DNA of 64,000 nt from a virus, in the IMG/VR virus record IMGVR_UViG_3300033153_006744, positions 26,495-90,494 of that record; one strand, written 5' to 3'. This document shows positions 23,380-61,436 of the stretch, in pieces. Position 1 is the first letter of the stretch. Each line of letters starts with the position of its first letter. The notes beneath the pieces were generated by a model. It saw only the letters and a program-made list of their open reading frames with translations. It was not told the origin of the DNA and did not search any database. The position numbers were made by a program, and so were the translations under genes.

Positions 23380-24042
23380 TTATTGTTTATCTTTGTGGTT
23401 GTTTAGCCTTATAAATGACAACACAACTAATAATTGCAACTCACTAAACTTAGAAAAAAACATCTTATTGTCATTGTATTTACTTAATCCGAACTTTCCG
23501 ATAACATTAAACTTTATACTTTTGCCACTTATTATTTCAGTTTTTGAGAACTTAAAGGCAATCATTTCCTTAGCTGTTTCATGAATTTCAAGCATATCAT
23601 CAAGATTTATTTTCACAAGCCCTTTGTCAGTGCCAATTGTTATTGAATCTTTATTATAATTAACCTTGCAAAAAAAGAAGAAATGTTTTTTATACGAGAA
23701 ATTAACACCAACCATAAATGGGCTTTTCTCCTTTTTGATTAAATCAAAGAGAACACTCCTGTTTTTAGTTGTTATAAACTCCTTTTCTGTAGCAAAAAAG
23801 TTAACTTGCCTTAATGTTTGGTTTTCTTTTAAGTTTTTGGTTTTAAACAAAGAAGAGCAAGTTAAGCATAATGTTTTTGAGTTATTCTTAAAAATATAGA
23901 AGTCATTAAAGTTAGCTGATACCGTATTCTTTATTAAGTATCCATTACTTACTTCGCAATTACACAATGCGCAGGTTCCTTTTTCTTTTCCATCTTCGTT
24001 TTTAATTATATGTTTATCTAGTATGTTAACTATATCTTTCAT
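23380..24042 (-). CDS. csf1: Type IV CRISPR large subunit Csf1 (Cas8-like)
   Basis: N-terminal Zn finger CALC...CLTC, 'VSANFNDF', 'PFMVGVNFSYKKH', 'FSKTEIISG' match type IV-B Csf1; adjacent to csf3. Confidence 0.75.
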   Translation of the reverse strand: MKDIVNILDKHIIKNEDGKEKGTCALCNCEVSNGYLIKNTVSANFNDFYIFKNNSKTLCLTCSSLFKTKNLKENQTLRQVNFFATEKEFITTKNRSVLFDLIKKEKSPFMVGVNFSYKKHFFFFCKVNYNKDSITIGTDKGLVKINLDDMLEIHETAKEMIAFKFSKTEIISGKSIKFNVIGKFGLSKYNDNKMFFSKFSELQLLVVLSFIRLNNHKDKQ

Positions 24043-24724
24043 TGTTCTCCTTTAGTTGTTTTGGGATTAATATATTTTCTTGATATTCACCTAGCCAATA
24101 TGGCGCACGATAAGACCCATAATCATTTACATAAGAGAAATCTCTATCTTTAAATATGTTATCAGCCATCACCTTAAGTGGCAGTGGTCTAAATAATAAA
24201 TATTTTTGCTCTTCTTTTTCGGCAATCGTAATCTCAAAACTTGAAAACCAACCGAACCCAGCCTTAACTTTTTTCCCAATCCCAACAATATAATCTACTA
24301 GTTCTTTTATCTTGTTTTTATCTCCTATAAAATAAAAAACTATATTATCAACAGAATTTATAACAATAGGCATGTCATAGCTTTTATAATATCCACTACC
24401 TATATTTACCTTTCTTTTGGCTTTTCCAAAATAACTAAGAAAATCATGTCTTGAATTCCATCGTTTCCGCCACTTGTCAATTGATATTTCTTTTTTCTCT
24501 ATTATTCCATAAGAACAAAGATAAAAACCTAATTTGTGTTTTTTTATGGGGATTAATTTTTCTATATTCTTATTTATTTCGGAACCATTCGAGGTTTTAA
24601 TGTCGGTGTTTTTTCTAAAATATTTCTGATAAACTGCATAAGAAATAATGCTGTCAAAAATAGGTATATCTGTATAAGCAATTGGAGATGACATTTTAAA
24701 TTTTATTTTATAAGTTATATCCAT
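24026..24724 (-). CDS. csf3: Type IV CRISPR Csf3 (Cas5-family RAMP)
   Basis: 'FDSIISYA', 'FYLCS', 'GSGYYKSYDMP', 'FYFIGD', G-rich loop 'GIGKKVKAGFG', 'RPLP', 'YRAPYW'. Confidence 0.85.
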   Translation of the reverse strand: MDITYKIKFKMSSPIAYTDIPIFDSIISYAVYQKYFRKNTDIKTSNGSEINKNIEKLIPIKKHKLGFYLCSYGIIEKKEISIDKWRKRWNSRHDFLSYFGKAKRKVNIGSGYYKSYDMPIVINSVDNIVFYFIGDKNKIKELVDYIVGIGKKVKAGFGWFSSFEITIAEKEEQKYLLFRPLPLKVMADNIFKDRDFSYVNDYGSYRAPYWLGEYQENILIPKQLKENNERYS

Positions 24725-25338
24725 GATTTTGAGAACTCCTTATTTCTAAACAAGTTTCCGAGTCCAGTAAATTGCTTTAACCTTAAGACCTCGTCCTTAT
24801 CCATCCCTAGTTGTTCACTTATCTTCTTGTCACTCCAGCCCATAAAATAAAGCTCTTCAACTATTTCACTCATAGATTGTATGCCATGCGTTCCTCTCGC
24901 CCTATTGTGTCTAATTGTACTAGCCATTCTTTCCTTTAAACTTTTTTCTATAACCACTAGTGGCAAATAGCCCTTGGTTCGTGTTTTTATGTCATCATAT
25001 TCCTTTCCAATTCTATTCCTGTGAAATCCATCAACAACAACATACTTATCTTGCTCTTTATCATAAAAAGATACAATTGGTTGAGTATATCCATCTTCTT
25101 TTATTGACCTATATAATAATTGCATTTCTGGAGGTGCAACCTTGTTTGGGTTGTAATTATTAGCCTTAACCCTATCTGCTTTTATCCACAAAACATTGCT
25201 GACTGGCTCTTCTTTAAGTGGGTTAATTTCGTTTAGTTTAGAATAAATGTCATTTAATAATTCTATCTTGTCATCTTGTTTTCTTATCTTCTTTATGTTG
25301 AAAATAAGTTCGTCAACCTTATCTAATAATTCTTTCAT
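24715..25338 (-). CDS. ibrB: IbrB/YbdM-like ParB/Srx-domain protein with C-terminal HTH
   Basis: 'ANNYNPNKVAPPEMQLLYRSIKEDGYTQPIV', 'VVDGFHR', 'STIRHNRARGTH', 'LGMDKDEVLRLKQ'. Confidence 0.85.
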   Translation of the reverse strand: MKELLDKVDELIFNIKKIRKQDDKIELLNDIYSKLNEINPLKEEPVSNVLWIKADRVKANNYNPNKVAPPEMQLLYRSIKEDGYTQPIVSFYDKEQDKYVVVDGFHRNRIGKEYDDIKTRTKGYLPLVVIEKSLKERMASTIRHNRARGTHGIQSMSEIVEELYFMGWSDKKISEQLGMDKDEVLRLKQFTGLGNLFRNKEFSKSWI

Positions 25339-26552
25339 TCTCCTAGCTCCTCTTTCATTTTATAATATTTTTCGTATTGATTTTTAGTTTGACCAAACGA
25401 CAAACTTTTACAGATTTTATCGTTCTTTAATATAACTTTAGCAAGCCTCCGCCATGATGGAGCCTTTTTAGAGCTTTCAAGTTTTTTGTCTGCTTCATCT
25501 GGAATTCCATCTGGATAACCATTTTTAGACCACCACCGAATAAATATCTTGAATTTTTGCCCATACCACTCTGCTTCAAATTTTGGAAGAGTTGCCATTA
25601 GAAAATTAACATAACTTTCCCATGTGTGATTTTTTGGCAATATTACCTTGTTGTTTCCTAATAAAAAGCTTTTGCAATATATGTTGCCAAAATTAGCTCC
25701 AGACACTCTATCAACAATTCTAGACCACGTTTCAGGTTCACACTGTCTAAATAAATTAAGACCTTTTCTTTGGTCATCTCCGTATGGCTGACATATTCTT
25801 GCTTCATGTATTGATAACCCCTGCATGTACATGAAATCATAAATTTTATTGTATGTATAGCTCTCGTTTCCAACAGAAACCCATATATCTTTAGTCTTCC
25901 AGTCATAAATAGGGTAAAAATTAAAAACATTCTCAACAATTTGAGTTGTCCACATTTTATCTTTATATATTTTTTTCTTCGTATTTTTAATGGTTCTATA
26001 TCTATTTAAACTTTCATCTGATCTTATTCCAACTCCACAGGCAATTTTTTCTTTTCCAACTTTGAACCACTCTGCAAACCTAACAACTAATTCTTCAAAC
26101 TCTATTCCTCTATGAAACCATTTCTCCCATTCTTTGGGCATGTTATTTTCGTTTATAACATATTTTGAATTAGGCATCGGCCTAACCCATTTATCTTCAT
26201 TTTCTTTATCCCAACAAATCCATTGTGGCTGGTAAACACTTACTGCATTTCTTAAATTTAAAGGCAAGCATAGCCAATAACCATCAATATCTTTATTGTT
26301 GAAAATTTCTTCAACATGCTTTATTGTAGACTTATACTGAGCCTCTAAGTCAATGAAAAGTATTTTTATTGGTATTTTGTTCTTTTTTTTCGCAATTTCA
26401 AGTGCTAGTTGAACCATTACACTAGAGTCTTTTCCGCCAGAAAAAGAAAAGCAAATCTCATCTTTGTCAAAGTTGTCAAAAATAAAATTAAGTCTTTCTA
26501 TTGCCTTGTCCCAAACATTTACTTTTGAATATGTTTTTGATTCACTGTTCAT
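25335..26552 (-). CDS. ibrA: IbrA/YbdN-like PAPS-reductase-family protein (DUF3440)
   Basis: PP-loop 'SFSGGKDS', 'DLEAQY', 'GIRSDESLNRY', 'YPIYDWKTKDIW', 'RICQPYGDDQ', 'PSWRRLAKVILKND'. Confidence 0.88.
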   Translation of the reverse strand: MNSESKTYSKVNVWDKAIERLNFIFDNFDKDEICFSFSGGKDSSVMVQLALEIAKKKNKIPIKILFIDLEAQYKSTIKHVEEIFNNKDIDGYWLCLPLNLRNAVSVYQPQWICWDKENEDKWVRPMPNSKYVINENNMPKEWEKWFHRGIEFEELVVRFAEWFKVGKEKIACGVGIRSDESLNRYRTIKNTKKKIYKDKMWTTQIVENVFNFYPIYDWKTKDIWVSVGNESYTYNKIYDFMYMQGLSIHEARICQPYGDDQRKGLNLFRQCEPETWSRIVDRVSGANFGNIYCKSFLLGNNKVILPKNHTWESYVNFLMATLPKFEAEWYGQKFKIFIRWWSKNGYPDGIPDEADKKLESSKKAPSWRRLAKVILKNDKICKSLSFGQTKNQYEKYYKMKEELGE

Positions 26553-26573
26553 TCTACCTCCTTAGTTACTTAC

Positions 26574-26602
26574 ACTGTAACACATTTTAAACTAAATGTC
26601 AA
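26574..26602 (-). promoter_or_regulatory. Internal promoter TTGACA-17-TACAGT (extended TG) for ibrA-ibrB-csf3-csf1
   Basis: Perfect -35 box, 17-bp spacer similar to the other early promoters, AAGGAGG RBS downstream. Confidence 0.7.
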
Positions 26603-27361
26603 CTATGTATATGCTTTTATTTCTGGATGAAAACTTAACATGAGATTGTATTGTTTTTTATAGTAATACTTTAACCATGAAAACTGACCTATTGTTGCAG
26701 CCGTTGGATCTACAAACCAAGATATTCTTATTTTAGCTGGATCATCTGTAAATCTTGTTTTATTATATGCCGGGTGTAGCAATTTATCTAATTTTCTACT
26801 GTAAATATATGCAAAAACATCATCCCCAGTTAAATCACAAATCGGATAAAACTGATATATCTTATTTTTCTTAGAATAAAATAATTTACCCATATGTTTT
26901 ATTAAATTTTCCCTTCTTTTGCTTTCTTCTTTTCTTATCCCAATCAAGGCAATTTTATAATCATTGTCCTGTTGGAAGTTTCTAATGGGCGTCATCATTG
27001 CCTTTTCAAACGCATAATTCTTGCACCCAGCATCATAAAAAGCCTTCTTTTTTGCATATTCATCTAGTATGTCAATTGGGGATTTTACTACATTTATTGT
27101 CTTATTGTGGTGTTTTTCCGCTAGTTTTATAATTCCGTAGCTCTCGGGTAGCTCATACCAAGAATCATGAAACATTATGTCTAAATTAGGGTTTGCCTCT
27201 AATGCAATATCTAGCATTACTAAACTATCCTTGCCAGTGCTATATGAAATAGAACCCTTTGTATTTCTTGTTTCTTTTTCAATAGAGCTCTTAACCAGCT
27301 CTATTTTTCCCTTAAACTCGTCTAGCTCTGCATACAACAAATAATATTCTTTATTTTTCAT
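26603..27361 (-). CDS. cysH: CysH-like PAPS-reductase-family protein (type IV-B associated)
   Basis: PP-loop 'SYSTGKDS', 'IGIRKEESKRR', 'YPICDLTGDDVFAYI', 'LHPAY'; overlaps the csf2 stop; start refined to ATG 27361. Confidence 0.85.
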   Translation of the reverse strand: MKNKEYYLLYAELDEFKGKIELVKSSIEKETRNTKGSISYSTGKDSLVMLDIALEANPNLDIMFHDSWYELPESYGIIKLAEKHHNKTINVVKSPIDILDEYAKKKAFYDAGCKNYAFEKAMMTPIRNFQQDNDYKIALIGIRKEESKRRENLIKHMGKLFYSKKNKIYQFYPICDLTGDDVFAYIYSRKLDKLLHPAYNKTRFTDDPAKIRISWFVDPTAATIGQFSWLKYYYKKQYNLMLSFHPEIKAYT

Positions 27362-28550
27362 TTTCTTTAACTCCAATAAAAGCTAGGATATCTTTTTTGT
27401 TTTTCTCTATATGCCTTAAGTATAAATTATTTGCATTTTCAGGAATTGTCAACTCTGACAAATCTATTTCAGATGAACCAGTTGCAAACATTCCGCCAAT
27501 AAACGGATTTTCTTTAAAAAGAATTAATGCATGCCAGAAGGCCGAAACAGATAATTCATTAAAATCCATCATTCTAAAGCCATGATTGAACTGAGTTCCT
27601 TTTGCAAAAACTTCATATTCATACTTCATATGAGTTGGGTTTTCATCTTTTTTGTCTTTTATCGCCTTTATTGATATATTCTTTTCATCTTTAGAGCTAT
27701 CTTTTCTGCTTTGAAAAATCATGTCCAAGTAAGACCAGAATGAGTTAATTCCTGTTTTCAACTCCACGCATTTAGGATATGCAAAACCAACAGATAATTG
27801 ACCTTCTATTGTCATGTTGCCTATTGCACTGCCAAAAACACCAAGCATTGGAATGCTATCTATTAGCTTTTCTCTTTTTTCTAAGTCCTCATATAGGGTA
27901 GACTCGGTCAAGGCTCCGCCAGTAAACAAAATATGATATAATTGTTTATCTATTTTTTTACATCCAACTCTTTTTAAGAAATCATACATCGCTAATCTTC
28001 TTAAGACGCCCCTAATGCTATTTCCAGATATACAAGGAATCAGCTCAAATGTTTTATTGTATGTTTTAAGTTTCTCTTTTTTTACATCTAATTTATGGTC
28101 TTTATCCTTGCTCTTCATTCTTAATAAAACAGTTATAGTGTGAGCCTCATCTCTAACTTTTGACAAAAACTCAACATCTGTTATTTGTTGTAGATAATTG
28201 AATGTTTTATCTTTTAAATCAGGCATTCTAACACCACATAAATCTGCAAATACTTCAAAAAATTGGAATCTATTTGAAGATGTTGCAGACCTTTTAATTT
28301 TTGAATATAGCTCATCCCATATTCCCATTAATCTCTTTCCTTTTATTTTGCTAAAGTCTATCTTAGAGTATATACTATAACAAACATCAACAATGATATT
28401 TCTAACATCATCATCTGAAAACGAGGTTAAAAAGTTCTCGTTTTTAACCATTATTTTCTGTCTCCTAAGCAGCTTTGTTGTTCCGTCTGTCTTATCGGAA
28501 CCCGTGTGAAGGAATGTTGTTCCAGTGAAATTGTAGTCAACTTTAATCAT
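27351..28550 (-). CDS. csf2: Type IV CRISPR backbone Csf2 (Cas7) with ~125-aa helical insertion
   Basis: 'LHTG...LLRRQKI', 'IPCISGNSIRGVLRR', 'LFTGGAL', 'PMLGVFGSA...IEGQLSVG', 'MKYEYEVFAKGT', 'IGGMFATG'. Confidence 0.88.
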   Translation of the reverse strand: MIKVDYNFTGTTFLHTGSDKTDGTTKLLRRQKIMVKNENFLTSFSDDDVRNIIVDVCYSIYSKIDFSKIKGKRLMGIWDELYSKIKRSATSSNRFQFFEVFADLCGVRMPDLKDKTFNYLQQITDVEFLSKVRDEAHTITVLLRMKSKDKDHKLDVKKEKLKTYNKTFELIPCISGNSIRGVLRRLAMYDFLKRVGCKKIDKQLYHILFTGGALTESTLYEDLEKREKLIDSIPMLGVFGSAIGNMTIEGQLSVGFAYPKCVELKTGINSFWSYLDMIFQSRKDSSKDEKNISIKAIKDKKDENPTHMKYEYEVFAKGTQFNHGFRMMDFNELSVSAFWHALILFKENPFIGGMFATGSSEIDLSELTIPENANNLYLRHIEKNKKDILAFIGVKENEK

Positions 28551-28605
28551 GTTTACTCCTTATTTAAGTTTAAGCATTGGGCTAATGCCTTTTGATTTTC
28601 CTATA

Positions 28606-29034
28606 CTATTCTTTTAAAAAGTTTAAATGTGCATTCATTGCAAATCTTGAGCTAAAAGAAGTTTTATCTTTATTTATTTTGCCTAATTCGTTTACCCTTG
28701 CAACAGTAAGAATAAAATTAGAGTTAGATTTTCTAAATTTATTAAAATAAAAAACCTCTTCGGTTTCGTCATTTTTGAACATATGGAATTCTTCCTGTAA
28801 TCTTTCTAGCTCAGTTTTTTTAGACAATATTTTTAACAAGAAAATTCCGTCCTCTTTTAAAACAAGTTCAACGTTAAATTTGTCTTCTAGTTCTTCTTTC
28901 TCTACTCTAGTACATTCAGCTGCAATGCACTCAAATTTTTTAGCATTATTACTTAGAACAACTAAATCTTTGTTAGCTTTAAATATAGTTAAGTTTTTAA
29001 AGTTTTTTCTAATTTCATTATATAATTTTTTCAT
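28606..29034 (-). CDS. Hypothetical protein, first gene of the csf operon
   Basis: AAGGAG RBS; directly under the 29.1 kb promoter cassette. Confidence 0.65.
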   Translation of the reverse strand: MKKLYNEIRKNFKNLTIFKANKDLVVLSNNAKKFECIAAECTRVEKEELEDKFNVELVLKEDGIFLLKILSKKTELERLQEEFHMFKNDETEEVFYFNKFRKSNSNFILTVARVNELGKINKDKTSFSSRFAMNAHLNFLKE

Positions 29035-35871: not shown

Positions 35872-37414
35872 TGTTTACCAGTTCATTTATTTGTTCTATT
35901 TCTTTAATATCTAATTCATTCATTTTTTCAGTAGGCAATAACCCAAGTTGAGCATATTTAGCACTAATCCAGCCCCACAAATCATTAACCTCATCAAGAG
36001 GCACCTTAAAGTATTCACTTAATTCTGCTCTAGCTTCATTAGGTGTAATAGCTCCTGAGTCTAATAGTTTAACTATTTCTTCTATAAATGCACTATCTCT
36101 CAATCTAACACCAAGAAGATAAAAATTAACCATTGTAGTGCCTATTACAGTATCTAAAAACCATGTCATGGTTACATTGAAATCATTTCGCTCTGGCTTA
36201 AATACTTGATTTTCTGCTGTTTCCAGAGCTGCATATGCAGTAGCTCTATTTATTCCATCCGTATCACCTGTAAAGAGCTTAGATAATCTAAAGCAAGACC
36301 TAATGCTTTCTTTTATATTTTTAAGAGCTTTGACAAAATAGTCATCTCTTTTAACTTGAAGTGGATTTATATCAATCTTCACGCCTTTTCCATCACTTCC
36401 ACCGCTTGTCTTGCTTTCCGTAATAATTGGTTCTTTTCCTTTTATAGATCCTGTCCTGAGTCTTTTGAAAAACTTCTTAAATTCATTTTTAGAATCTTTT
36501 GTTAAAGAACCACCAGATAAATTAATCCAATAGTTAGGCATTTTGTTTGTTTGTAAGTCTTCTAAATCACCATTAGCATGATATATATATGTTAATGATT
36601 CTGTTATGGCTGGCTCATAGCGAGGTACACCATATTCAGTATCATCTATGCTCTCTAATTTAAAATGTAATATTTCAGTTGCAAGTAAATCTTCATCTTT
36701 TATCTTTTCTGACTCTATAGCTTTATTGTAATCCTCTTCAGTTTCATATATGTCACCAGTTTTTTGCATGATATATCTAGGATCACCAAATTCTTTATAG
36801 AAAATATTATATTTTATATCTTTAAATACATTAAAGTTCTGCAAGTCATCAACTGTTTTAGTTTCATCTATCCCAGAGTTTATTGTTTTCTCTGTTTTTA
36901 TATATTCAACGTTTGGTTGTATTCTAATGTTAACAGATTTAAGACATGTTATTTTATACACTTGTTTAGCGTCATTTTTCCAAATATCCCAATAACCATT
37001 ACCAAAGGATTCTTTCTGCTTAAATGTCTCCTTCAATAGACCCTGAAAGCCATCTTTATCCGTAACCCTTTTTAAAAACAGCTCTACTTCTAGCTTGTCT
37101 TTCTCTCTCTTTAACTCTAAATCTTTTTTTATTATCAAATATTCTTTGTCTGTTAATACTTTGCCAGTTTCAGCGTGATATTGTAAGCTAATTAATTTCT
37201 TAGTTGATTCGCTTTCTAGCTTATATCTATCATTTAATTCATAACCTTGTTGAGCTATATTTGAAACATAAGCATTTATATTGCCCCTAACCTCAGAATT
37301 AGATCTACAAATTAAGGATAATAAATGTAATGGATAAGGAGGGTTTTGCAATAATTCACCTTCATTTTTGCCATTCAGAGCATAAGTCTTTCCAGTTTGC
37401 AAAGTATCAGGCAT
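35849..37414 (-). CDS. Portal protein (PBSX/XkdE-like)
   Basis: 'PPYPLHLL', 'FGNGYWDI', 'YKEFGDPR', 'TEILHFK', 'YGVPRY', 'NRATA', 'ITPNEAR'. Confidence 0.9.
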   Translation of the reverse strand: MPDTLQTGKTYALNGKNEGELLQNPPYPLHLLSLICRSNSEVRGNINAYVSNIAQQGYELNDRYKLESESTKKLISLQYHAETGKVLTDKEYLIIKKDLELKREKDKLEVELFLKRVTDKDGFQGLLKETFKQKESFGNGYWDIWKNDAKQVYKITCLKSVNIRIQPNVEYIKTEKTINSGIDETKTVDDLQNFNVFKDIKYNIFYKEFGDPRYIMQKTGDIYETEEDYNKAIESEKIKDEDLLATEILHFKLESIDDTEYGVPRYEPAITESLTYIYHANGDLEDLQTNKMPNYWINLSGGSLTKDSKNEFKKFFKRLRTGSIKGKEPIITESKTSGGSDGKGVKIDINPLQVKRDDYFVKALKNIKESIRSCFRLSKLFTGDTDGINRATAYAALETAENQVFKPERNDFNVTMTWFLDTVIGTTMVNFYLLGVRLRDSAFIEEIVKLLDSGAITPNEARAELSEYFKVPLDEVNDLWGWISAKYAQLGLLPTEKMNELDIKEIEQINELVNNVNREKE

Positions 37415-37415
37415 T

Positions 37416-37661
37416 CTAACCTCCTATAGTTTTTTCGTAATCTTCTAAAAGTTCATTAGGAGTCATTTTATCTACAACCCTTTTTATCATATTGTTGTTT
37501 TCTATTTGCTTTTGTTCTAACTTTAACCCTGTATTTTCTCTTGTTAACTCATCTATTACCTTGTCTTTATTCTTGTTTAAATTCAACTGAATAATGTTTG
37601 CAATAAATGAACCAGCTAAAAGTAAAATAAAAATTAAATATACAATTATTGTTATATTCAT
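37416..37661 (-). CDS. Small membrane-anchored coiled-coil protein
   Basis: N-terminal TM helix followed by a coiled coil; AAGGAG RBS. Confidence 0.6.
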   Translation of the reverse strand: MNITIIVYLIFILLLAGSFIANIIQLNLNKNKDKVIDELTRENTGLKLEQKQIENNNMIKRVVDKMTPNELLEDYEKTIGG

Positions 37662-37691
37662 TATAACTCCTTAAAAAATATAATCTATTAC

Positions 37692-37720
37692 ATAATGCCA
37701 TGTTTTTTTTAAAATTACAA
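37692..37720 (-). promoter_or_regulatory. Promoter TTGTAA-17-CATTAT with TGG extension, upstream of the head operon
   Basis: 17-bp spacing, TGGCAT box. Confidence 0.5.
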
Positions 37721-37761
37721 GTGTTTTCTTTAGAGTTGGAAAAAGAATTAAACTATTGAAA

Positions 37762-38457
37762 TTAATAACCTGTTTGCTTGTTTTGGATATGGAGTGCATT
37801 TAAATAGTCAAAAATAAGATGCATATTTCTGTCACTTAGTTCTTTTTCTTTTCTTACATCTTGAGCTAATGTTGTTATGCTTTCCGCTAATGATTCAGGT
37901 ACTTGCTTCATGCCTAAGCTATCGAATAATTCTTTTATTGATACCCAACCTTCGTCATGTGGGTATTTTTTGCCTTGCTCTCTTGATGCTTCATTGTCTT
38001 CAATTTGGTTGGCGTCATTTGAATATTGGTCAATGCTGAAGCCATCTATTAATGAATCTAAATTATTAAGTTGTTCTGAGCTATAGGGCATTGTTTCCAG
38101 TAACTCATCTGTATCAAACTCTTTCTGTAACTCACTTATTATATCTACTAACTTGTTTTTATCACTTTTAAACCTAGTCTCGTTGGTCTCAATGGCTATT
38201 CTTTTGGCTTGGTTTTCCGTAATATTGCCTAAATTATAGCACATAACTTTATCATAGTTTAGTTCATTAAGAACATCTAACCTATGGTTGCCATTAACCA
38301 TTTCATAGGAATCTTCTTCTAACTCCCTAACTATGACACTTTCAATGAATCCATTTCTAATGATGTTTGATTTAAGCTTTGACCTTAATTCTTCATTGTC
38401 TTCTTTATAATTCCATTCAGCTTTAATTATTTTATTCAACTCAATTTCTTTAAACAT
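37762..38457 (-). CDS. ParB/Srx N-terminal domain protein
   Basis: 'WNYKE', 'NGFIESVIVRE', 'MVNGNHRL'; start refined to ATG 38457. Confidence 0.8.
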   Translation of the reverse strand: MFKEIELNKIIKAEWNYKEDNEELRSKLKSNIIRNGFIESVIVRELEEDSYEMVNGNHRLDVLNELNYDKVMCYNLGNITENQAKRIAIETNETRFKSDKNKLVDIISELQKEFDTDELLETMPYSSEQLNNLDSLIDGFSIDQYSNDANQIEDNEASREQGKKYPHDEGWVSIKELFDSLGMKQVPESLAESITTLAQDVRKEKELSDRNMHLIFDYLNALHIQNKQTGY

Positions 38458-38458
38458 T

Positions 38459-39859
38459 TTAACCTCTAGTTTTATCAAATTCTTCTTTTATATCTTTAAA
38501 GTCTATTGTTTTGCTGTTTCTTATTAATTTAACATCATTAAAATTAGCTTTATGTTTAACATATCTATCTACAATTATATCGCAATATTTTTCATCCAAC
38601 TCCATTCCATAGCAAACTCTTTTTAATTGTTCACTTGCAATAATCGTTGTTCCACTACCGCAAAAAGGCTCAACAACTATATCTTTTTCTTTTGTAAACA
38701 TTGCAATAAATTCAGCAGGTAATTGAACTGGAAAAACCGCTGGATGGTCAGTTTTATTGCTTTTCTCCACTCCAATGTTAAAAACTGTTCCTTGAAAACC
38801 ATATTTATTTATATTGTGGCACACTGTATCTTCTATATGTCCTTTTTTGGCTCTTTTTACTGTTTTCATCTTCGCCGTCTCATAATATGAGTTTATTTTA
38901 GTGCGATTTTTTTCTTTGATTTCTTTGCCAAAAATAAAAATCCATTCATGCCATACGGGGATAAAGGCGGTTTCGTTGCCAATAGAACCAGAGTTATTTC
39001 TATTCCATATGCTCCAACTTAAAAACTTTAAATTTTCCTGTTTTGCTTTGTCAATATAAGTGTTCCAATAAGGGAATATTTCATTATTTTTTCTTTGCAA
39101 TCCAAGATTAATAATTTGATAGTTTACATATTCTCTGTATGTTTTAATAAAATTAACAATATTATCAACTTTTAAATCCTTTTCTCCATTATATTCTCTC
39201 ATGTCACTATAAGGAGGGCTAGTAAACAACATTTTAGATGTTTCGCCGTTCATCAGCTTGTTAACGTCTTCTTGACTTGTACTGCTACCACATAACAATC
39301 TATGTTTTCCCAATATCCATATATCCCCTTTTTTAGTATATGCAGCCTTCTTAATGTTTTCAGTAAAATCATCTTGCTCAACTTGCTTATCCTCTAAAAC
39401 ATCTAAGCCAACATTTTCTTCACTTTCATAATCTTCTAATTCTAAATTAAAATCTAAATCATCATCAGCAAAATCTAAAACATCATCAACGATTGTATAG
39501 CTGAGGTCTTCTAGTCCAAAATTATTTGATATATCATTGATTAAATCCGTTAATTTTTCCTCATTAACGCCAAACTTTGTTTCATTTGTTTCTATTGCAA
39601 TTCTTTTAGCTTGGGCTAATGATATGTTACCCAAATCATAACACATTGTATGTTTAACCTTTAACTCTCTTAAAATATCTAGCCTATGATTTCCATTTAC
39701 CACTTCATATTTATTTTTACTTATTTGCCTTACAATTATGTTTTCAATAATGCCATTCTTTTTTATATTGTTTTTTAATTTTTGGCTTAATCTTTTGTTT
39801 TCTTCTTTATAATTCCAATCCGCCTTGATTAATTGATTTATCTTTATGTTTTTAAACAT
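38459..39859 (-). CDS. ParB-domain / DNA amino-methyltransferase fusion (N4C/N6A, beta-class)
   Basis: ParB N-terminus 'VVNGNHRL'; 'GKHRLLCGSS', catalytic 'TSPPY', 'HPAVFP', SAM motif 'EPFCGSGTT'. Confidence 0.9.
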   Translation of the reverse strand: MFKNIKINQLIKADWNYKEENKRLSQKLKNNIKKNGIIENIIVRQISKNKYEVVNGNHRLDILRELKVKHTMCYDLGNISLAQAKRIAIETNETKFGVNEEKLTDLINDISNNFGLEDLSYTIVDDVLDFADDDLDFNLELEDYESEENVGLDVLEDKQVEQDDFTENIKKAAYTKKGDIWILGKHRLLCGSSTSQEDVNKLMNGETSKMLFTSPPYSDMREYNGEKDLKVDNIVNFIKTYREYVNYQIINLGLQRKNNEIFPYWNTYIDKAKQENLKFLSWSIWNRNNSGSIGNETAFIPVWHEWIFIFGKEIKEKNRTKINSYYETAKMKTVKRAKKGHIEDTVCHNINKYGFQGTVFNIGVEKSNKTDHPAVFPVQLPAEFIAMFTKEKDIVVEPFCGSGTTIIASEQLKRVCYGMELDEKYCDIIVDRYVKHKANFNDVKLIRNSKTIDFKDIKEEFDKTRG

Positions 39860-40430
39860 TGCCTACTCCTTTTAAAAACCCATAACCAGAACCATTTTTA
39901 TGACCTACACCTAAATATAATATAGGCTCATTATTCGTTTCTTCTTTAAACTTCAAGATAACTTTAAACGAATCAACTAAATTGCCCTTAAAGAAAACTT
40001 CTTCATTGCCATATTCAATCACAATGTCATCAACGTTATTTTTATCTATAATATTTTTATCTATATATTCAAAAACAAAAGAGTTTATATTGTTAACTTT
40101 TGATGTAATTATTCCACAAGGTTCGGTTTTGAACACTTTGCTTTTATCTAGCTCAAAAAACATCATGTTTGCCAAAGCTATTCCTATTCCATCGTAATTC
40201 CTAAACTTCAAAGAGTTCAATTCGTTCATTCTTTTAAGAAACGCATCAGATAAGCTTCTAAAGTAAACCGTAATAAAGCTTTTCCCGTCTTTAGTTAAGA
40301 ACCCTTCAGGATTGATTGCAAACTTATCTCTTGCTTGCAGGTGTAGCGTTAATGCTGTTATCATTTTTGCTTTTTGTTCGGTAATTTCTGTATCAAAAAG
40401 GAAGTCTATCTTGCCATTAATAAAATTCAT
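39852..40430 (-). CDS. cas6: Cas6-like RAMP protein (putative)
   Basis: C-terminal 'YLGVGHKNGSGYGFL' matches the Cas6 GhGxxxxxGhG loop; 192 aa with beta-rich pattern. The remainder is divergent. Confidence 0.55.
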   Translation of the reverse strand: MNFINGKIDFLFDTEITEQKAKMITALTLHLQARDKFAINPEGFLTKDGKSFITVYFRSLSDAFLKRMNELNSLKFRNYDGIGIALANMMFFELDKSKVFKTEPCGIITSKVNNINSFVFEYIDKNIIDKNNVDDIVIEYGNEEVFFKGNLVDSFKVILKFKEETNNEPILYLGVGHKNGSGYGFLKGVGNV

Positions 40431-40477
40431 GTCAACTCCACATAGTTAATTTCTATAGGTTATTGCAACCTAGAATT

Positions 40478-40506
40478 AGTATGCCAGTAAATATGTATTA
40501 TGTCAA
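40478..40506 (-). promoter_or_regulatory. Promoter TTGACA-17-CATACT (TGG extension) for cas6-MTase-ParB
   Basis: Perfect -35 box, 17-bp spacer; leader hairpin TAGGTTG-CAA-TAACCTA follows. Confidence 0.7.
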
Positions 40507-40643
40507 GTAGTTAATCAGACGTATCATAAAAAATATCAATTAAGTAATGATAGTAATCAAGGCATGTATATTCAAGTTCTTCTTCTTTAGTTTGACGCTC
40601 TAGGTCATCTACATACCTATGGTTTAACCTAAATTCATTAACT

Positions 40644-41033
40644 TCATTTTGATTTGTCATTATTAACCTTTTTATTTAGTTTTCTAATATGTTTTAAGAA
40701 ACTATTTAAATCATAATTAAATTCAGTTAAGCATATTACATCAGAAATCCTCTTGTCTGCATTGCTTTTGTTTTGAAATATAGCTTGTATAGAAATCTTA
40801 TCTATGAATGCTTTCTTTTCAAATACTTCTTCTTCATAAGTGTAGCATCTCAGAGTAATTGTTTCAATGTCGTTATTATGTTTTACTTCAGTTAAGAAAG
40901 AGAAAGTATCTTTGCCTTTGTTGTCACTTTTGTTGAATGTTGTCTTTAGGTATTCAAAGTTTGTTTTTTTTAGTTTAGAATTAAAATAGTCTTTGAATTC
41001 CACTTCTCTTATATCTATTAACGTTTCTTTCAT
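40644..41033 (-). CDS. Hypothetical protein
   Basis: AAGGAGG RBS. Confidence 0.6.
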   Translation of the reverse strand: MKETLIDIREVEFKDYFNSKLKKTNFEYLKTTFNKSDNKGKDTFSFLTEVKHNNDIETITLRCYTYEEEVFEKKAFIDKISIQAIFQNKSNADKRISDVICLTEFNYDLNSFLKHIRKLNKKVNNDKSK

Positions 41034-41203
41034 TTTACCTCCTTACCATATTCTAGTTTTCTGTATCTCATAACTACATTTCAACGTCCATACATGAGCC
41101 TGAATATATCCATCTAAAAAAACCCATAATGGCTTTGTAATATCTGTCTCTTCTTGTTTCTCAACATTCTCTTGTAAATTAGTTTTAACTTCTATTCGAT
41201 CTT

Positions 41204-41533
41204 TCACTTAACCTCCTCATATAGTTTTTTTGAGCCTTCTTTCAGGTCATGCCCCTTACAGTTAACTCTAAGATTAGATGCTTCAACTTTACCATAGGGA
41301 CACCATAAAAAAGCACCATATCTTTTGCGATCAAGCATGTTTTCCAGTTCACTTAAATGTTCGCAATTATTACATCGTTTTACCTCTTTAAAATATTGCT
41401 TCAATATGTTTTCTAGGGTTGCTTTTTCGCCAAGCAACATACACGTTTGCCCGTATTCTCCTAGTTTTTTATTTGAGAAAGTTTTGATTTGTTTGTCTAG
41501 TTCTTCAATCCTTTTTTGCAACCTATTCATCAT
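41204..41533 (-). CDS. Hypothetical protein with CxNCxH Zn-ribbon module
   Basis: 'VKRCNNCEH...WCPY...NCKGH'. Confidence 0.6.
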   Translation of the reverse strand: MMNRLQKRIEELDKQIKTFSNKKLGEYGQTCMLLGEKATLENILKQYFKEVKRCNNCEHLSELENMLDRKRYGAFLWCPYGKVEASNLRVNCKGHDLKEGSKKLYEEVK

Positions 41534-41541
41534 TACCCTCC

Positions 41542-42372
41542 TTATTTCAACTTCCTTAATATTGTAAATTTCTTATGTGTAAAGTGTTCTTTTAGTTCAA
41601 CCTTAATATCATCTTGCAACCCTAGTTCAAAAATTAGTTCTGCTTTCTTGTATCTCTTAATGTATCTCTCAATCATGTCAATTCTTTTTTGTCTTACCTT
41701 GCTAAACCTTTTAACTAGATAACCTGGATATAAGGTCATATATTTGTAATCTACATCTGAGTATTTAGAATTAAATCTAGTTCTAAATTTTCCACCTATC
41801 TTTCTATAGTGATATTTAAGAATGTTAATGTGATTTCTAAACCAGCCTAATTGAGTTTGCAAGCTAAACACTTTGTCATATTTCTTGAGTTCTTCTTCCG
41901 TGTATTTAGCTTTTCTGAAGCTGTAAGGCTCTTTACAGACCGTTGACCCAACAGACTTACATCTTGTTTGAACTAATCCAATGTCATATGAATCTTGCGA
42001 TAATGCAAGAGTATTCCATCTGCTTTCTATTCTTGCTGTAGCTCCAAGTATAATTCCATCATCAAAATCTATACTGCTATCATTTTCTATAAACTCATAT
42101 ACTTCAATTAGCATTTCTTTGTCTATATTTAACTTAGAAGCATACCTATGAGCAAATATAAATTTATCCATATCTTTTTTTCTAATATTTACATGCTCTA
42201 AGCGACTTGACATTAGCTCTAATAGATTACGCATGTAATCAACATTTGACTTAAAATAACCTGATTCTTGTCTGTTGCTTGCCTCATAATCTAATCTGTT
42301 AAATGCAAAAGCATCTAAGCCAATAAATAACGCCACAGCAAAACACAATATATTAAATAAAACTTTTTTCAA
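41542..42372 (-). CDS. Lytic transglycosylase (SLT)-like protein with N-terminal signal/anchor
   Basis: 'ARIESRWNTLALS...DIGLVQ' = catalytic ES and GLxQ motifs; hydrophobic N-terminus; TTG start after a GGAGAGGGAG RBS. Confidence 0.7.
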   Translation of the reverse strand: MKKVLFNILCFAVALFIGLDAFAFNRLDYEASNRQESGYFKSNVDYMRNLLELMSSRLEHVNIRKKDMDKFIFAHRYASKLNIDKEMLIEVYEFIENDSSIDFDDGIILGATARIESRWNTLALSQDSYDIGLVQTRCKSVGSTVCKEPYSFRKAKYTEEELKKYDKVFSLQTQLGWFRNHINILKYHYRKIGGKFRTRFNSKYSDVDYKYMTLYPGYLVKRFSKVRQKRIDMIERYIKRYKKAELIFELGLQDDIKVELKEHFTHKKFTILRKLK

Positions 42373-42426
42373 CTCCCTCTCCAATTCTAATTAAAAAAAA
42401 CAATATAGCATACTTACGCTGAATAA

Positions 42427-43002
42427 TCAAGCTAATCTTGCTCTTTTGGTTCTAAGTTCATGCTTATAAAAAGTCCTTGTTAAATTCTTTTTTTGTGTTT
42501 TTGAGTAATATTTTATTTTAATTTTTGCTCTATCTACAGATACAACATGAAATTCTGTTTTATCATGATATATATATGTTCTACCAGTTATAAAGTGCTT
42601 GTCTGCTTTGAGTGTTTCTTTTTTAACGATGTCCACCCCTCTTGCTCTTTGCTTTGGGGCTAATCCGATTCTGAACTTCTTGGAATAAAAAGCACTAAAG
42701 TTAACCTCTTGAGTCATTCCATTATCTAAGCAATACAAAGTAAAAGAAGATGGGCTCCTGCCAATTATCTTAGCTCTTTGGCTGTAAATGCTAGTTATAG
42801 TGTCACCTAAATTATATTTGTAACTTGCTTTTATAAGAGCTTTAAAGTTTCCTGAGTTCAGCTGATCTACTGATATAATTCTCCTTGCTCCTGTTTTAAT
42901 TGCTTCTACCTCGTAAGATGCGTGATCTCTAAAATTAAAGATGTCTATAACCTTACACCTCTCGCCATGTTTGTCTTTTATGATATTGCCTATTTTAATC
43001 AT
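42427..43002 (-). CDS. Hypothetical protein with repeated small beta-barrel-like units
   Basis: Three segments starting 'IGNII', 'LGDTI', 'TGRTY'. Confidence 0.55.
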   Translation of the reverse strand: MIKIGNIIKDKHGERCKVIDIFNFRDHASYEVEAIKTGARRIISVDQLNSGNFKALIKASYKYNLGDTITSIYSQRAKIIGRSPSSFTLYCLDNGMTQEVNFSAFYSKKFRIGLAPKQRARGVDIVKKETLKADKHFITGRTYIYHDKTEFHVVSVDRAKIKIKYYSKTQKKNLTRTFYKHELRTKRARLA

Positions 43003-43358
43003 TTGGTCTCCTTAATTCCTTTTAACTTATTAATTAGCACATCTAAGTGTTCTTTGTATGCTTGCATAGCTTTATCAAATTCAATAGCAATCTGTTTGCG
43101 TGTAGAGTGATCTGCTATAAAATTATATATACCCTTTATTTTCCAAAAAGTTTTCATTTCATGTTCAAAATTATCATCTTTTGATGCTAAGGTAGTTACA
43201 CCGCCCGCCGAAATAGATACAGATAATATTTCCTTGTTATCTCTTTCCCAATAAGCCATTTCAAAATTCTTTTTAGTTGTAGGTATTTCAATAAATTCAA
43301 ACGCTTCTTCTCCTTTGCAAATCTTTTGGAAGATTAATTCAATTATTTGTTGCCTCAT
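42999..43358 (-). CDS. Hypothetical protein
   Basis: ATGA-coupled ORF, GGAGG RBS. Confidence 0.6.
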   Translation of the reverse strand: MRQQIIELIFQKICKGEEAFEFIEIPTTKKNFEMAYWERDNKEILSVSISAGGVTTLASKDDNFEHEMKTFWKIKGIYNFIADHSTRKQIAIEFDKAMQAYKEHLDVLINKLKGIKETK

Positions 43359-43597
43359 TCCGCCTCCTTTTTCAACTTCTTAATAGTTAGCTCTAAAATC
43401 TTATTATTTTCTCTCACTACCTCCAGCTGACCTTCTTTTAAACTTAGTTGTTCATTCATGCTTTCGATAAGTAATCTCAGCATGTTGTTTTCTTCAGACA
43501 ATATTTTACTGTAGCTTAACTGTGATTCTAACTTGTGATTTAAAGTAACATTGTCTTCTTCTAAGATGTCTACCTGCGCTATTGTTTGGTCGTTCAT
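43355..43597 (-). CDS. Hypothetical coiled-coil protein
   Basis: GGGGG RBS; heptad pattern. Confidence 0.55.
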   Translation of the reverse strand: MNDQTIAQVDILEEDNVTLNHKLESQLSYSKILSEENNMLRLLIESMNEQLSLKEGQLEVVRENNKILELTIKKLKKEAE

Positions 43598-43606
43598 TTT
43601 TACCCC

Positions 43607-44188
43607 CTATGATTTTAAAAACAAATCTTTTAAGTTGATCTTCTCAACTATAGAATATTGTGGAACTTTACTTGAAATTACGTTGTAAAACCTGCTTTTT
43701 GATTCCCAAAAAGAACAAGGCTCACTATTTAACAGAAATTCGGCATCTATTTTACATTTCTTGTGAACACAGGTCAGGTCGTCTTTATGCTTGCAGTCAT
43801 AACATTTCTTCAAAACTTCAAATACTGGATCAACAGTTGAAGTCACACCCAGCCCCCACCCGTAGGTGTCATAAATTAATATATCTCTATTTTTTTTAAA
43901 TAAATCCCACATATCTATACATATTTTATCTTTAAATTTAGTTTTATTATTTAGTATCTGATTAAATAATTTATGCTCTATGGTATATTTAATTGTAGCT
44001 TCCTTGTTGTATGCGATTATTTTGAAATCAAACTTAATTAACTGATTGTTTTTACTTAGGGAAAAAGAAAAATAATCACCTTTTGATACAATATGTTCAA
44101 CCTCTTTTTTGCTTTCTTTGAAACCTGACTTTTTGAACTCATCTAAAAATTCTTCCAAAAAACCTTCTTTTATGTCATTGTAAAACAT
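43607..44188 (-). CDS. Hypothetical protein with CxxCxH module
   Basis: AGGAGG RBS; 'LKKCYDCKH...C...CSFW'. Confidence 0.6.
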   Translation of the reverse strand: MFYNDIKEGFLEEFLDEFKKSGFKESKKEVEHIVSKGDYFSFSLSKNNQLIKFDFKIIAYNKEATIKYTIEHKLFNQILNNKTKFKDKICIDMWDLFKKNRDILIYDTYGWGLGVTSTVDPVFEVLKKCYDCKHKDDLTCVHKKCKIDAEFLLNSEPCSFWESKSRFYNVISSKVPQYSIVEKINLKDLFLKS

Positions 44189-44214
44189 GATGCCTCCTAT
44201 GTTATATTTAATAT

Positions 44215-44562
44215 TTATACTCTAGTAAAACAGCTTATAGCATCCAACAAATCTATGTGCTCCATGCTGTCAACACTATCCCAATAATTAAAGCCTAATT
44301 CTTTCATGAGTTCTCTTAATAAAATCGTTGACTCTTTACCCTCAAGCCATCGCAAACTTTTTGCCCTATATTGTAAATCAGTATAGCTTTTTTCATACAT
44401 CTTTTCTAACATACTCTTAATGACCCTATAATCCGTTTGAATACAGTTTTTTAGTTTGCAATATTTAAAACAAATAGCCAAAAACCCTTGTGCCAAGAAA
44501 TGATAATACTCATAAGACTTTTTATTTTCAATTTTCCTAGCTTTTATTAAATAATTTTTCAT
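44215..44562 (-). CDS. Hypothetical protein
   Basis: AGGAG RBS before ATG 44562; under promoter cassette 2. Confidence 0.6.
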   Translation of the reverse strand: MKNYLIKARKIENKKSYEYYHFLAQGFLAICFKYCKLKNCIQTDYRVIKSMLEKMYEKSYTDLQYRAKSLRWLEGKESTILLRELMKELGFNYWDSVDSMEHIDLLDAISCFTRV

Positions 44563-44584
44563 AATATCTCCTATGATCAAACTT

Positions 44585-44644
44585 AGCCAAGACCTTTTCT
44601 TAACTTTATACGTATACTATAATCTATTCTTAAACTAATGTCAA
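44585..44644 (-). promoter_or_regulatory. Promoter + leader stem-loop cassette 2 (TTGACA-17-TATAGT)
   Basis: Hairpin AGTTAAGA-AAAGG-TCTTGGCT with G-U pairs. Confidence 0.8.
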
Positions 44645-44666
44645 GCAAAAAGTAAAGTTTTTTGAA

Positions 44667-45419
44667 TTATATGTCATTATGTTTTATGATAAATTTTCTA
44701 GCATCTTGAAAACCTTTTTTGTCTCTTTTAAACTCTAAAACTACCTTCGTTGTTGCGTGTTCAAATGATATAAGTTCATGTGTGTTATCTCCAAGTAAAA
44801 CCATAAAGTTATGATGCCTTGCCAGATCCAAAAGATATACAAGTCTAGCGTCATGTCTTATTTTATCGCTTGATAACTCTCTTTCTTTCTTGGTTAACAT
44901 TCTTTCACTTTCAATTCTTTTTTCTAAATCTCTTTTTTTAAGAACATTTAAAATGTACTCTCTAGCTTCTTTAAATCCTTGTTTAGTTGCTTTAAAATAT
45001 TTGCCTATATTTACAACGAAAATATGTTCTCCAAAATCCTTGTTAAAGCCTAATGACAAGAAGTGAATGTCATTTGATTTGGCTAATTCTTCTATAACGT
45101 CTAATCTTTTATCTTTTTTATCCAAACTACAATTATAAATCAGCACATCGATAATTGTTAAAATGTTATAAATATTGGTTCCAGGTGCATCATAAGAAAG
45201 ATAAATGTGATTAGTTTGAAGCCAATCTTTTTCGTGCTTGCAGCTATCTAAATTTCTATTAAGCAAGGTCAAGAAAGCTGTCTGTATTTTTTTATTGATA
45301 TCAAACCATAGTGGAAATATAGGAATCAATACAGATCTATACCTATGGTTATAATAACTTGTTGGTGGATAATATTCATCGCCATTTACTATGTTTAGTA
45401 TTTCTTGTTTATTTGTCAT
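44667..45419 (-). CDS. Hypothetical protein with internal repeat
   Basis: GGAGG RBS; 'FKATKQGFKEAREYI' / 'FKRDKKGFQDARKFI'. Confidence 0.6.
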   Translation of the reverse strand: MTNKQEILNIVNGDEYYPPTSYYNHRYRSVLIPIFPLWFDINKKIQTAFLTLLNRNLDSCKHEKDWLQTNHIYLSYDAPGTNIYNILTIIDVLIYNCSLDKKDKRLDVIEELAKSNDIHFLSLGFNKDFGEHIFVVNIGKYFKATKQGFKEAREYILNVLKKRDLEKRIESERMLTKKERELSSDKIRHDARLVYLLDLARHHNFMVLLGDNTHELISFEHATTKVVLEFKRDKKGFQDARKFIIKHNDI

Positions 45420-45783
45420 TGCATCCTCCACCGTTTTTTATTTGCATTAATTGTTTTTCGGTTTCCCCTATCTTCTGTTTTATTATGTTTATTTCTTCAT
45501 GAATTACATCTAAGATTCTATCTACAGTTTCCATGTTTTTATTATTTGCGATAGTTTCTAGCTTACCAATGTCATCATTGGAATATTCATATATGGATAT
45601 TACATTACCCTCATGCTCTTTTTTAACATATGAATATCTTGACACCAATTCACGTTCATCGCCTTTGGCATTATCCCAGCATATTATATAATATAGGCGT
45701 TCTCCTTTGTTAATTATCGTATGCTCTGCATATTCTTTGTTGTCGCCATTTATTATGTTTAATATTTCTTGTTTAGTTATCAT
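45409..45783 (-). CDS. Hypothetical protein
   Basis: AAGGGGG RBS; N-terminus paralogous to the next gene. Confidence 0.6.
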   Translation of the reverse strand: MITKQEILNIINGDNKEYAEHTIINKGERLYYIICWDNAKGDERELVSRYSYVKKEHEGNVISIYEYSNDDIGKLETIANNKNMETVDRILDVIHEEINIIKQKIGETEKQLMQIKNGGGCNDK

Positions 45784-46169: not shown

Positions 46170-46745
46170 ATGTCTTTAACTTATCAAGAAATTAACAAAA
46201 ATTATGACTTACAAGATTTATCAGGCGAAGAATGGAGGGATATCAAGGGTTTCGAGGGGTTTTACCAGGCAAGTAACTTGGGTAGAATAAAGGGGTTAGA
46301 CAGAATAGTGTCACAAGGGATTAGAGTAAATGGAAGGATAATGAAGCCTAGAATAAGTCGAGCTGGCTACCCAATGATCGGGTTGCGCAAAAATGGATTA
46401 CATAAATCCATAGAAGTACACACGCTGATAGCTAAAGCATTTATTGAAAAACACCAAAGCAAGAAGAAACTAATAGTTAATCATAAAAATGGGATTAAGA
46501 TAGATAATAGATTAGGAAATTTAGAGTGGAGCACCTATTCAATGAACCTAAAACATGCTTACGATAATAACCTAAGAGGGTCTAAAGATAAGCACCCCAA
46601 CGCTAAACTAAGCAAAACACAGGTTGAATTCATAAGGGCAAATAAAGGTAAACTTACTTATTCATATTTAGCAAAATTATTTAATGTGTCATTTGAGACT
46701 ATATCATGTGTGATGAGAAATAAATATTACAATTATGACAAATAG
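46170..46745 (+). CDS. NUMOD4-HNH homing endonuclease
   Basis: 'EEWRDIKGFEGFYQASNLGRIK' NUMOD4; 'VHTLIAKAF', 'VNHKNGIKIDNRLGNLEW' HNH; C-terminal HTH. The only convincing plus-strand gene. Confidence 0.92.
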   Translation: MSLTYQEINKNYDLQDLSGEEWRDIKGFEGFYQASNLGRIKGLDRIVSQGIRVNGRIMKPRISRAGYPMIGLRKNGLHKSIEVHTLIAKAFIEKHQSKKKLIVNHKNGIKIDNRLGNLEWSTYSMNLKHAYDNNLRGSKDKHPNAKLSKTQVEFIRANKGKLTYSYLAKLFNVSFETISCVMRNKYYNYDK

Positions 46746-54985: not shown

Positions 54986-55067
54986 GGTCCATTTTTGCAA
55001 ATCTAGGGGGTCCATTTTTACAGGGGGGTCCATTTCTGCAAATACAAGGGGTCCATTTTTACAAATC
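54986..55067. repeat. Four short direct repeats, core GGTCCATTT(T/C)T(A/G)CA
   Basis: Copies start at 54986, 55009, 55027 and 55050 (spacing 23/18/23); GC-rich island in AT-rich DNA. Confidence 0.85.
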
Positions 55068-61322: not shown

Positions 61323-61436
61323 TTTGTTTCTAGTTTCTCTTAATGTTTTAGCTCTATCCTTTATGAATTTCTCTTTTTCTTCTTTTGTTAAACTATCATA
61401 ATATTCAGTTAAACTGTGAGACTTAAAACTTAAATG
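61323..61436. repeat. 114-bp exact direct repeat, copy 1
   Basis: Identical to 63887-64000. Confidence 0.9.

Follow-up and report, generated by a model that had tools for sequence, protein, structure and literature searches.

Does a phage whose CRISPR effector genes come without an array and without an RNA-processing enzyme encode such an enzyme elsewhere in its genome? This question is raised by IMG/VR virus record IMGVR_UViG_3300033153_006744, a phage sequence of 90,494 bp, of which bases 26495-90494 were analysed (64,000 nucleotides, hereafter the window). The window holds a csf operon of type IV-B, a subtype of the CRISPR systems, and, in another operon, a gene for a 192-aa protein (P0001) that ends in a glycine-rich loop. 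Type IV-B is described as having neither an array nor an enzyme that processes CRISPR RNA (crRNA), and the source of the RNA in its complexes is named as the key open question of the subtype (PMC8175902). Cas6 is stated to be absent from type IV-B "with rare exceptions" (10.1101/780106). The first-pass annotation of this DNA started from the premise that cas6 is generally missing from type IV-B loci, and as far as the cited parts of these two sources go, the published record agrees. What is new here is a very divergent member of the known Cas6-like RAMPs and orphan viral cas genes. We tentatively propose that P0001 combines two halves resembling an RNA recognition motif (RRM) with the C-terminal glycine-rich loop, and that it works in trans with the Csf complex.

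Judged by its conservation, the 192-aa open reading frame (ORF) is a real gene, because it has a full-length homologue. When 1.84 billion representatives were searched exhaustively with phmmer, a sole true relative of P0001 emerged, the 191-aa protein P0002, which matches it along its full length at 38% identity (E 5.9e-28) and is encoded on a 1,324-bp ENA contig. Both proteins are singletons in a collection of ~15 billion proteins and, unlike the Cas6 families, the family has only these two members. They share 73 invariant positions, including His30, Arg58, His177 and the entire loop GVGHK.G.G.GFL. Cas6 enzymes cut a repeat hairpin independently of metal, through catalytic His, Tyr and Lys or Arg residues, and His30 is at best a speculative candidate for such a role in P0001. 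P0003 (phmmer E 3.3e-04) was considered as a third member and dropped; it is a 380-aa repeat protein with a short matched stretch. A word-index search returned only the query itself for P0001, and only P0001 and P0002 for the two-member profile. No relative of P0001 was found in phages and plasmids by tblastn, or in viral contigs with the two-member profile (519 pattern matches, 0 relatives). Degenerate DNA patterns for the loop region had no match in viral contigs and none in metagenome contigs. The best match of the profile among PDB sequences (proteasome beta subunits, E 0.68) is not meaningful.

The loop is what the first-pass annotation had seen at the end of the ORF, and it stands as described, invariant in P0002. 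How specific is it? The pattern G-h-G-x5-G-h-G was searched in a background of ~750 ORFs, where it was confined, P0001 apart, to known RAMPs (Cas6 and Csf3). It occurs in 2 of the 223 ORFs of the window phage (P0001 and Csf3), in 2 of the 369 ORFs of another phage, G001 (Cas6 and Csf3), and in none of the 155 ORFs of ten viral ParB loci. Seven csf loci, a set that includes L002, which is part of G001, gave four matches among 302 ORFs (one Cas6, three Csf3). All 25 PF01881-type and all 8 PF09559-type Cas6 proteins carry the motif. At the level of sequence, we consider the loop of P0001 to be more than chance. Its position is also informative. It ends 8 residues before the C-terminus, and the distance is 8-25 residues in known Cas6 (33/33). 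It starts at residue 174 of 192; in known Cas6 it begins 17-35 residues short of the C-terminus (247 of 265, 215 of 230 and 196 of 212 are examples), whereas in Csf3 the motif is mid-protein (148 of 232, 145 of 211). The position fits Cas6 and not Csf3. A loop of this kind ~10-20 residues from the C-terminus is common to Cas6 of the PF01881/TIGR01877, PF09559 and type IV Csf5/Cas6 kinds, and in length P0001 is close to the short PF09559 Cas6/Cmx6 type, whose members have 196-225 aa. Weak matches to the Pfam RAMPs model were obtained for both family members (P0001 E 0.14, P0002 E 0.03), and they reach the last model position, which is the end of the model's glycine-rich loop.

The predicted structure points the same way. 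The exact sequence of P0001 is contained in the ESM Atlas, where its own model has a predicted template modelling (TM) score of 0.80. Against three sets of Cas6 clusters this predicted double-RRM model gave TM scores of 0.70-0.73 over 181-187 of the 192 residues, spanning both halves, and only Cas6 clusters were listed. By language-model features, P0001 comes closest to a PF09559 Cas6 cluster of 197 aa (score 0.93, 191 shared features), whose commonest taxon is Uroviricota. The ten best named feature matches of P0001 all belong to the Cas6 clan, a result to be read with the caveat that one third of shuffled proteins also score 10/10 for a single clan in this search. The features of P0002 agree with this (score 0.93, 194 shared). 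Because shuffled proteins also reach 10/10, we call the Cas6-like double-RRM fold likely rather than certain. The call draws on a single predictor together with a specific motif, and as a prediction it is probably sound. On sequence, P0001 is best described as Cas6-like, with no place in any curated Cas6 family.

Would such a protein have a use in this phage? The csf operon starts with a 142-aa ORF and continues csf2-cysH-ibrA-ibrB-csf3-csf1 (23380-29034). Its csf matches are all below the curated equivalog cut-offs. The locus has csf1, csf2, csf3 and a cysH-like gene but neither an array nor cas6, and the window phage thereby falls under the definition of type IV-B; no CRISPR array was found in the 90,494 bp of the phage. 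The 142-aa ORF takes the place that cas6 has in G001; it matches no family and does not resemble the Cas6 or Csf1 of G001 (best E 0.76-0.78). That P0001 might be the missing Cas5 of the csf operon was considered and rejected, because csf3 already fills the Cas5 role; the position of the motif differs as well.

The comparative argument comes from G001, a complete 153.5-kb phage with a direct terminal repeat. It carries an operon of overlapping genes, cas6-csf1-csf2-cysH-csf3 (L002 8683-12559), and is free of CRISPR arrays throughout. The Csf proteins are orthologous to those of the window phage (identity 37% for Csf1, 48% for Csf2 and 45% for Csf3; 25% for CysH). Some array-less phage Csf systems do include Cas6. 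The G001 protein is, like P0001, phage-borne and array-less, and its loop (GIGNKTGQGYG) is identical to that of P0001 at 8 of 14 positions. It differs from P0001 in that it belongs to a curated family and its gene opens the csf operon; P0001 is undetectable by TIGR01877, lies 11 kb from the csf genes and is encoded in a methyltransferase operon. A word-index search with the G001 Cas6 listed no relatives. Because the csf operon of the window phage lacks cas6, a Cas6-like gene is present elsewhere in the same genome and the G001-type operon has cas6, supply in trans to the Csf complex is the single most likely role of P0001, although we hold it with less than even confidence. The functional story is plausible and draws on one comparative argument, that of G001.

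Cas6-like RAMPs recognise one particular RNA hairpin, which in most cases they also cleave. In the proposed mechanism, P0001 would recognise an RNA hairpin and would hand over, or cap, an RNA on which Csf2 polymerises. Because the phage has no CRISPR array, the RNA would come from host CRISPR transcripts or from other hairpin RNA. The coordinates of the features discussed here are collected in Table 1.

Table 1. Positions of the Cas6-like gene, its operon, the csf genes and related elements (window coordinates unless stated otherwise).
Feature	Position	Strand	Basis or remark
Cas6-like RAMP gene (P0001)	39852..40430	-	ORF, 192 aa, ending ...LYLGVGHKNGSGYGFLKGVGNV
Codons of glycine-rich loop GVGHKNGSGYG, residues 174-184	39879..39911	-	Coordinates computed from ORF start
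Shine-Dalgarno GGAG, 5 nt 5' of ATG	40436..40439	-	Read from sequence
Leader hairpin, 7-bp stem, 3-nt loop	40456..40472	-	One copy, within the range of shuffles
Sigma-70-like promoter match TTGACA-17-CATACT with upstream TG	40478..40506	-	Pattern ranking
ParB_N + N6/N4 DNA methyltransferase gene	38459..39859	-	Pfam E 2.7e-07 (ParB_N), 1.9e-26 (N6_N4_Mtase); phrog_498 E 2.6e-72
Second ParB-like gene, overlapping the end of the methyltransferase gene	37762..38478	-	ORF and family searches
142-aa ORF, first position of csf operon	28606..29034	-	No family match
csf2 (Cas7), candidate partner	27351..28550	-	TIGR03115 E 2.2e-09, below curated cut-off
cysH-like gene, PAPS-reductase fold	26603..27376	-	Family search
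ibrA-like (PAPS_reduct + DUF3440) and ibrB-like (ParB_N) genes	24715..26552	-	Family search
csf3 (Cas5)	24026..24724	-	TIGR03116 E 3.6e-22
csf1	23380..24042	-	TIGR03114 E 8.3e-12
G001 cas6, head of csf operon	L002 8683-9375		PF01881 E 2.0e-19; TIGR01877 83.1 bits vs cut-off 58.65
-35 hexamers of the hairpin-cassette promoter class	29114, 44639, 46027, 52853, 57602, 62197
The same class, genome coordinates	831, 8111, 14982, 20561

A number of results weigh against this proposal, some of them on the Cas6 side and others on the Csf side. P0001 has no match to the PF09559 and PF01881 hidden Markov models (HMMs), even at E<=10 in a search of the single genome, and none in NCBIfam or PHROGs. When the two-sequence profile was aligned by hhalign to the 25 PF01881-type Cas6 proteins, only the loop was matched (15 columns, P 0.011). 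The value was P 0.46 for the 8 PF09559-type proteins and P 0.0066 for 7 Csf3 proteins, as good as for Cas6. An HMM built here from the Cas6 set placed P0001 seventh of the 223 phage ORFs (E 0.88). Two AlphaFold2 models of P0001 are of low confidence, with predicted local distance difference test values of 34.8 and 42.0, and give no support for a Cas6 fold. On the Csf side, P0001 lies ~11 kb from csf2, the nearest cas genes, and in another operon. The csf promoter has a hairpin cassette that is missing from the promoter of P0001, and the leader hairpin of P0001 differs from that cassette in stem and loop. Of 7 csf loci, only that of G001 has a Cas6 next to csf2, and this bona fide Cas6 is non-homologous to P0001. 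No homologue was found with the two-member profile in the 6 other genomes or records that have a Csf2 relative (G001 0/1, G002-G006 0/5), several of which are incomplete metagenome-assembled genomes or fragments. No candidate RNA substrate of the Cas6-like protein was found. When Csf2 and P0001 were modelled together as a complex, the score was 0.00, which is counted neither for nor against binding.

The profile scores have to be read beside their controls. PF01881-type and PF09559-type Cas6, both accepted families, reach only P 0.0048 against each other by hhalign, and the Cas6 of G001 gives P 0.048 against the PF09559 type and P 1.2e-09 against its own type. Because even accepted Cas6 families fail to recognise one another in this way, we take the weak profile scores of P0001 as uninformative and not as evidence against Cas6. 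With the G001 Cas6 added to the PF01881-type set, the same two-sequence profile gave P 0.0034. The PF01881-type alignment was made from 25 of 30 loci; L027 and L032 (truncated to <240 aa) and L028, L030 and L034 (wrong reading frame) were left out. In a second HMM built here from the Cas6 set, P0001 was not among the ten best matches listed. PF09559 had no match in 301 genomes of the phylum of G002, and two weak TIGR01877 matches in G002-G006 are below the cut-off, one of them mapped inside a Csf3 ORF.

These scores also bear on whether P0001 is a Cas6 at all. It could instead be a different RAMP, resembling Vipr or Cas5, or have an unrelated fold in which a glycine loop occurs by coincidence. 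The profiles detect no more than the loop and score Csf3 as well as Cas6, the AlphaFold models are poor, and the Atlas feature search has the background of 10/10 scores among shuffled proteins described above. A wide VIA-align search with the second, low-confidence AlphaFold2 model gave middling matches of a generic ferredoxin-like kind for residues 1-92. Moreover, phage-borne stand-alone RAMPs exist. Vipr is such a phage-encoded protein with a glycine-rich loop; in the portion of the source cited, it has a single RRM, the second being absent, and is accompanied by vrRNAs of 9-16 YNNGG repeats and a vap gene (10.64898/2026.04.26.720920). Unlike Vipr, the Atlas model of P0001 aligns over two halves, and with Cas6 clusters only. 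Such repeats are lacking here: on neither strand of the 90-kb genome do >=4 YNNGG units follow one another, and >=6 of 10 phased GG do not occur within any 50-nt window. With the loop in the Cas6 position, and with accepted Cas6 families that fail to detect each other, we judge an identity other than Cas6 to be distinctly improbable. The first-pass reading of the protein as Cas6-like is supported by the motif, its position, the weak RAMPs matches and the ESM Atlas; it is not borne out by any curated Cas6 model or by the poor-quality AlphaFold2 models. Outside the loop P0001 has no HMM or profile match, and unlike the usual Cas6 it has no CRISPR array or adjacent cas genes.

If P0001 is Cas6-like, it could still act without the csf genes of the phage. 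As a co-opted cas gene it could bind host repeat RNA or enter a host effector complex and block crRNA maturation, expressed together with an orphan methyltransferase of the anti-restriction type and independent of the Csf complex. There are documented cases of orphan viral cas genes with anti-CRISPR activity, and a survey of IMG/VR counted 358 orphan viral cas genes, often located in anti-defence loci (10.1101/2023.06.24.545427). P0001 resembles AcrIB3, AcrIB4 and AcrVIA2 as described in that text, in being a cas-like gene without an array beside a candidate anti-defence gene. Those genes were found through similarity to Cas queries, a search that P0001 would escape, and the window phage, unlike the setting described for them, also has a csf operon. 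The text of the same source names no Cas6 example among orphan viral cas genes (its supplementary table is outside this statement), and the literature searched makes no mention of an orphan or viral cas6 by name (supplementary tables likewise outside the search). P0001 heads an operon with a ParB-methyltransferase. None of the 9 ORFs searched upstream of it (41204-45783) matches a Pfam or PHROG family, a common picture in accessory regions. Co-occurrence with csf2 across relatives, which the first-pass annotation had looked to, was not observed (0/6), and this too is in keeping with a role in counter-defence. Against this role, the surroundings yielded no known acr or aca gene, and the csf operon of the same genome lacks exactly this component, which the orthologous G001 operon has. 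We regard stand-alone anti-CRISPR activity as the main rival to supply in trans, and as unlikely.

The expression of P0001 was read from its promoter and leader. Its promoter match scores 10 of 12, the top rank in 37300-41200, tied with three other sites; of these four, it alone has the upstream TG. Promoter-like sites are not enriched in this region (24 vs 21.8 +/- 5.2 in shuffles). The TTGACA promoter of its own that had been ascribed to the gene is therefore present and top-ranked, although sites of this kind are no more frequent than in shuffled sequence. The extended -35 element of this promoter, CTTGACAT, is common to the strong promoters of the phage. Ten promoters form one class with CTTGACAT, a conserved spacer and a -10 element. 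Downstream of every one of them come a stem of 8-9 bp whose loop is AAAGG or AAGGG, and then a Shine-Dalgarno sequence and a start codon. One promoter of this hairpin-cassette class drives the csf operon. A strict DNA pattern for promoter plus hairpin had 0 matches in viral contigs, which says little.

The leader hairpin upstream of P0001 had been proposed as an autoregulatory substrate. The hairpin is there, but it is no more stable than expected (-8.2 kcal/mol, z -0.97; 28 of 200 shuffles fold equally well). No second copy occurs in the window at <=3 mismatches (1 match; 30 of 100 shuffles give >=1). As a single copy that 28 of 200 shuffles match in stability, it lends no statistical support to autoregulation. 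The 213-nt intergenic region has no unusual structure (z -0.52), and no Rfam family reached its gathering score in the window or, for 37300-41300, even E<=1.

Could P0001 then serve the phage's own transcripts? One reading is that of an RNA-processing or regulatory protein which binds hairpins in its own leader or in the conserved 5' leaders behind strong early promoters and so controls mRNA stability or translation. Cas6-fold proteins are hairpin readers, and at least ten promoters of one class offer a similar stem and loop, one of them at the head of the csf operon. However, the leader hairpin of P0001 is unlike that class, single-copy and not above chance. It is also the case that 5'-terminal hairpins stabilise mRNA without a dedicated protein, so none is needed for that purpose. 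We hold this reading to be very unlikely. More doubtful again is a reading in which the Cas6-like protein would bind or cut the >=10 dispersed promoter-cassette hairpins, including that of the csf operon's own transcript. Defined phage-encoded RNAs would then be delivered to an array-less Csf complex, possibly in connection with the DNA-modification enzymes, and we give this promoter-linked replacement of an array very little credence.

P0001 is probably the first gene of an operon that continues with the ParB-methyltransferase gene and the second ParB-like gene and is read from the sigma-70-like promoter described above. The portal gene comes after the second ParB-like gene. The distance of ~11 kb to the csf operon and the overlap of the P0001 stop with the start of the ParB-methyltransferase gene, both given by the first-pass annotation, were confirmed, the overlap being 8 nt. 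The Shine-Dalgarno sequence of the methyltransferase gene lies inside the last codons of P0001, which suggests coupled translation. On this ground P0001 might be taken for an RNA-binding subunit that works together with the ParB-methyltransferase and guides or regulates the methylation of DNA. But overlapping genes are routine in phage operons, and a homologue of P0001 is encoded upstream in 0 of 10 related viral ParB or ParB-methyltransferase loci (hmmsearch, best E 0.036). We consider such a partnership the least credible of the explanations given here. The parallel that the first-pass annotation drew between the csf-cysH-ibrAB linkage and this second DNA-modification operon has the gene overlap as its sole basis, and no gene of this kind stands upstream in the 10 related ParB loci. 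Taken together, the first-pass observation is partly confirmed and its interpretation partly supported.

The ParB-methyltransferase had no match among genome contigs. A blastn comparison of 36001-44000 with phages gave a single match of 121 bp, in a Clostridium phage methylase. In viral contigs, the closest relatives of the ParB domain (L004-L011) are ParB-like genes of 212-220 aa, each preceded by a gene of 246-305 aa. Further upstream in most of these loci are genes whose N-termini may resemble those of enzymes of the 7-deazaguanine or queuosine pathways.

The remainder of the record is that of a phage with 31.6% G+C and a 101-bp direct terminal repeat, and nearly all of its genes are on the minus strand. 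Among the very few plus-strand ORFs that do not overlap a minus-strand gene is a homing-endonuclease-like ORF with NUMOD4 and HNH_3 domains (46170-46745, +). The 101-bp terminal repeat is part of a 114-nt stretch at 63887-64000, of which a third copy, 100% identical, lies at 61323-61436, 2,564 bp inside the right end. The extra copy could be part of a longer structured terminus or an effect of assembly. At 54986-55067, four GGTCCATTT.T.CA direct repeats with a spacing of ~18-23 nt lie at a gene start and are iteron- or operator-like.

What would these findings mean for array-less Csf systems? The window phage and G001 are a natural pair for asking whether such systems use processed hairpin RNA, and which. 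Of the two, the G001 operon is the cleaner test system for type IV-B plus Cas6. If the promoter-cassette hairpins were the RNA in question, the phage would have a dispersed, promoter-linked substitute for a CRISPR array. More generally, RAMP genes that are invisible to sequence models can occupy the accessory operons of phages, and because such genes escape sequence models, similarity-based surveys of orphan viral cas genes undercount.

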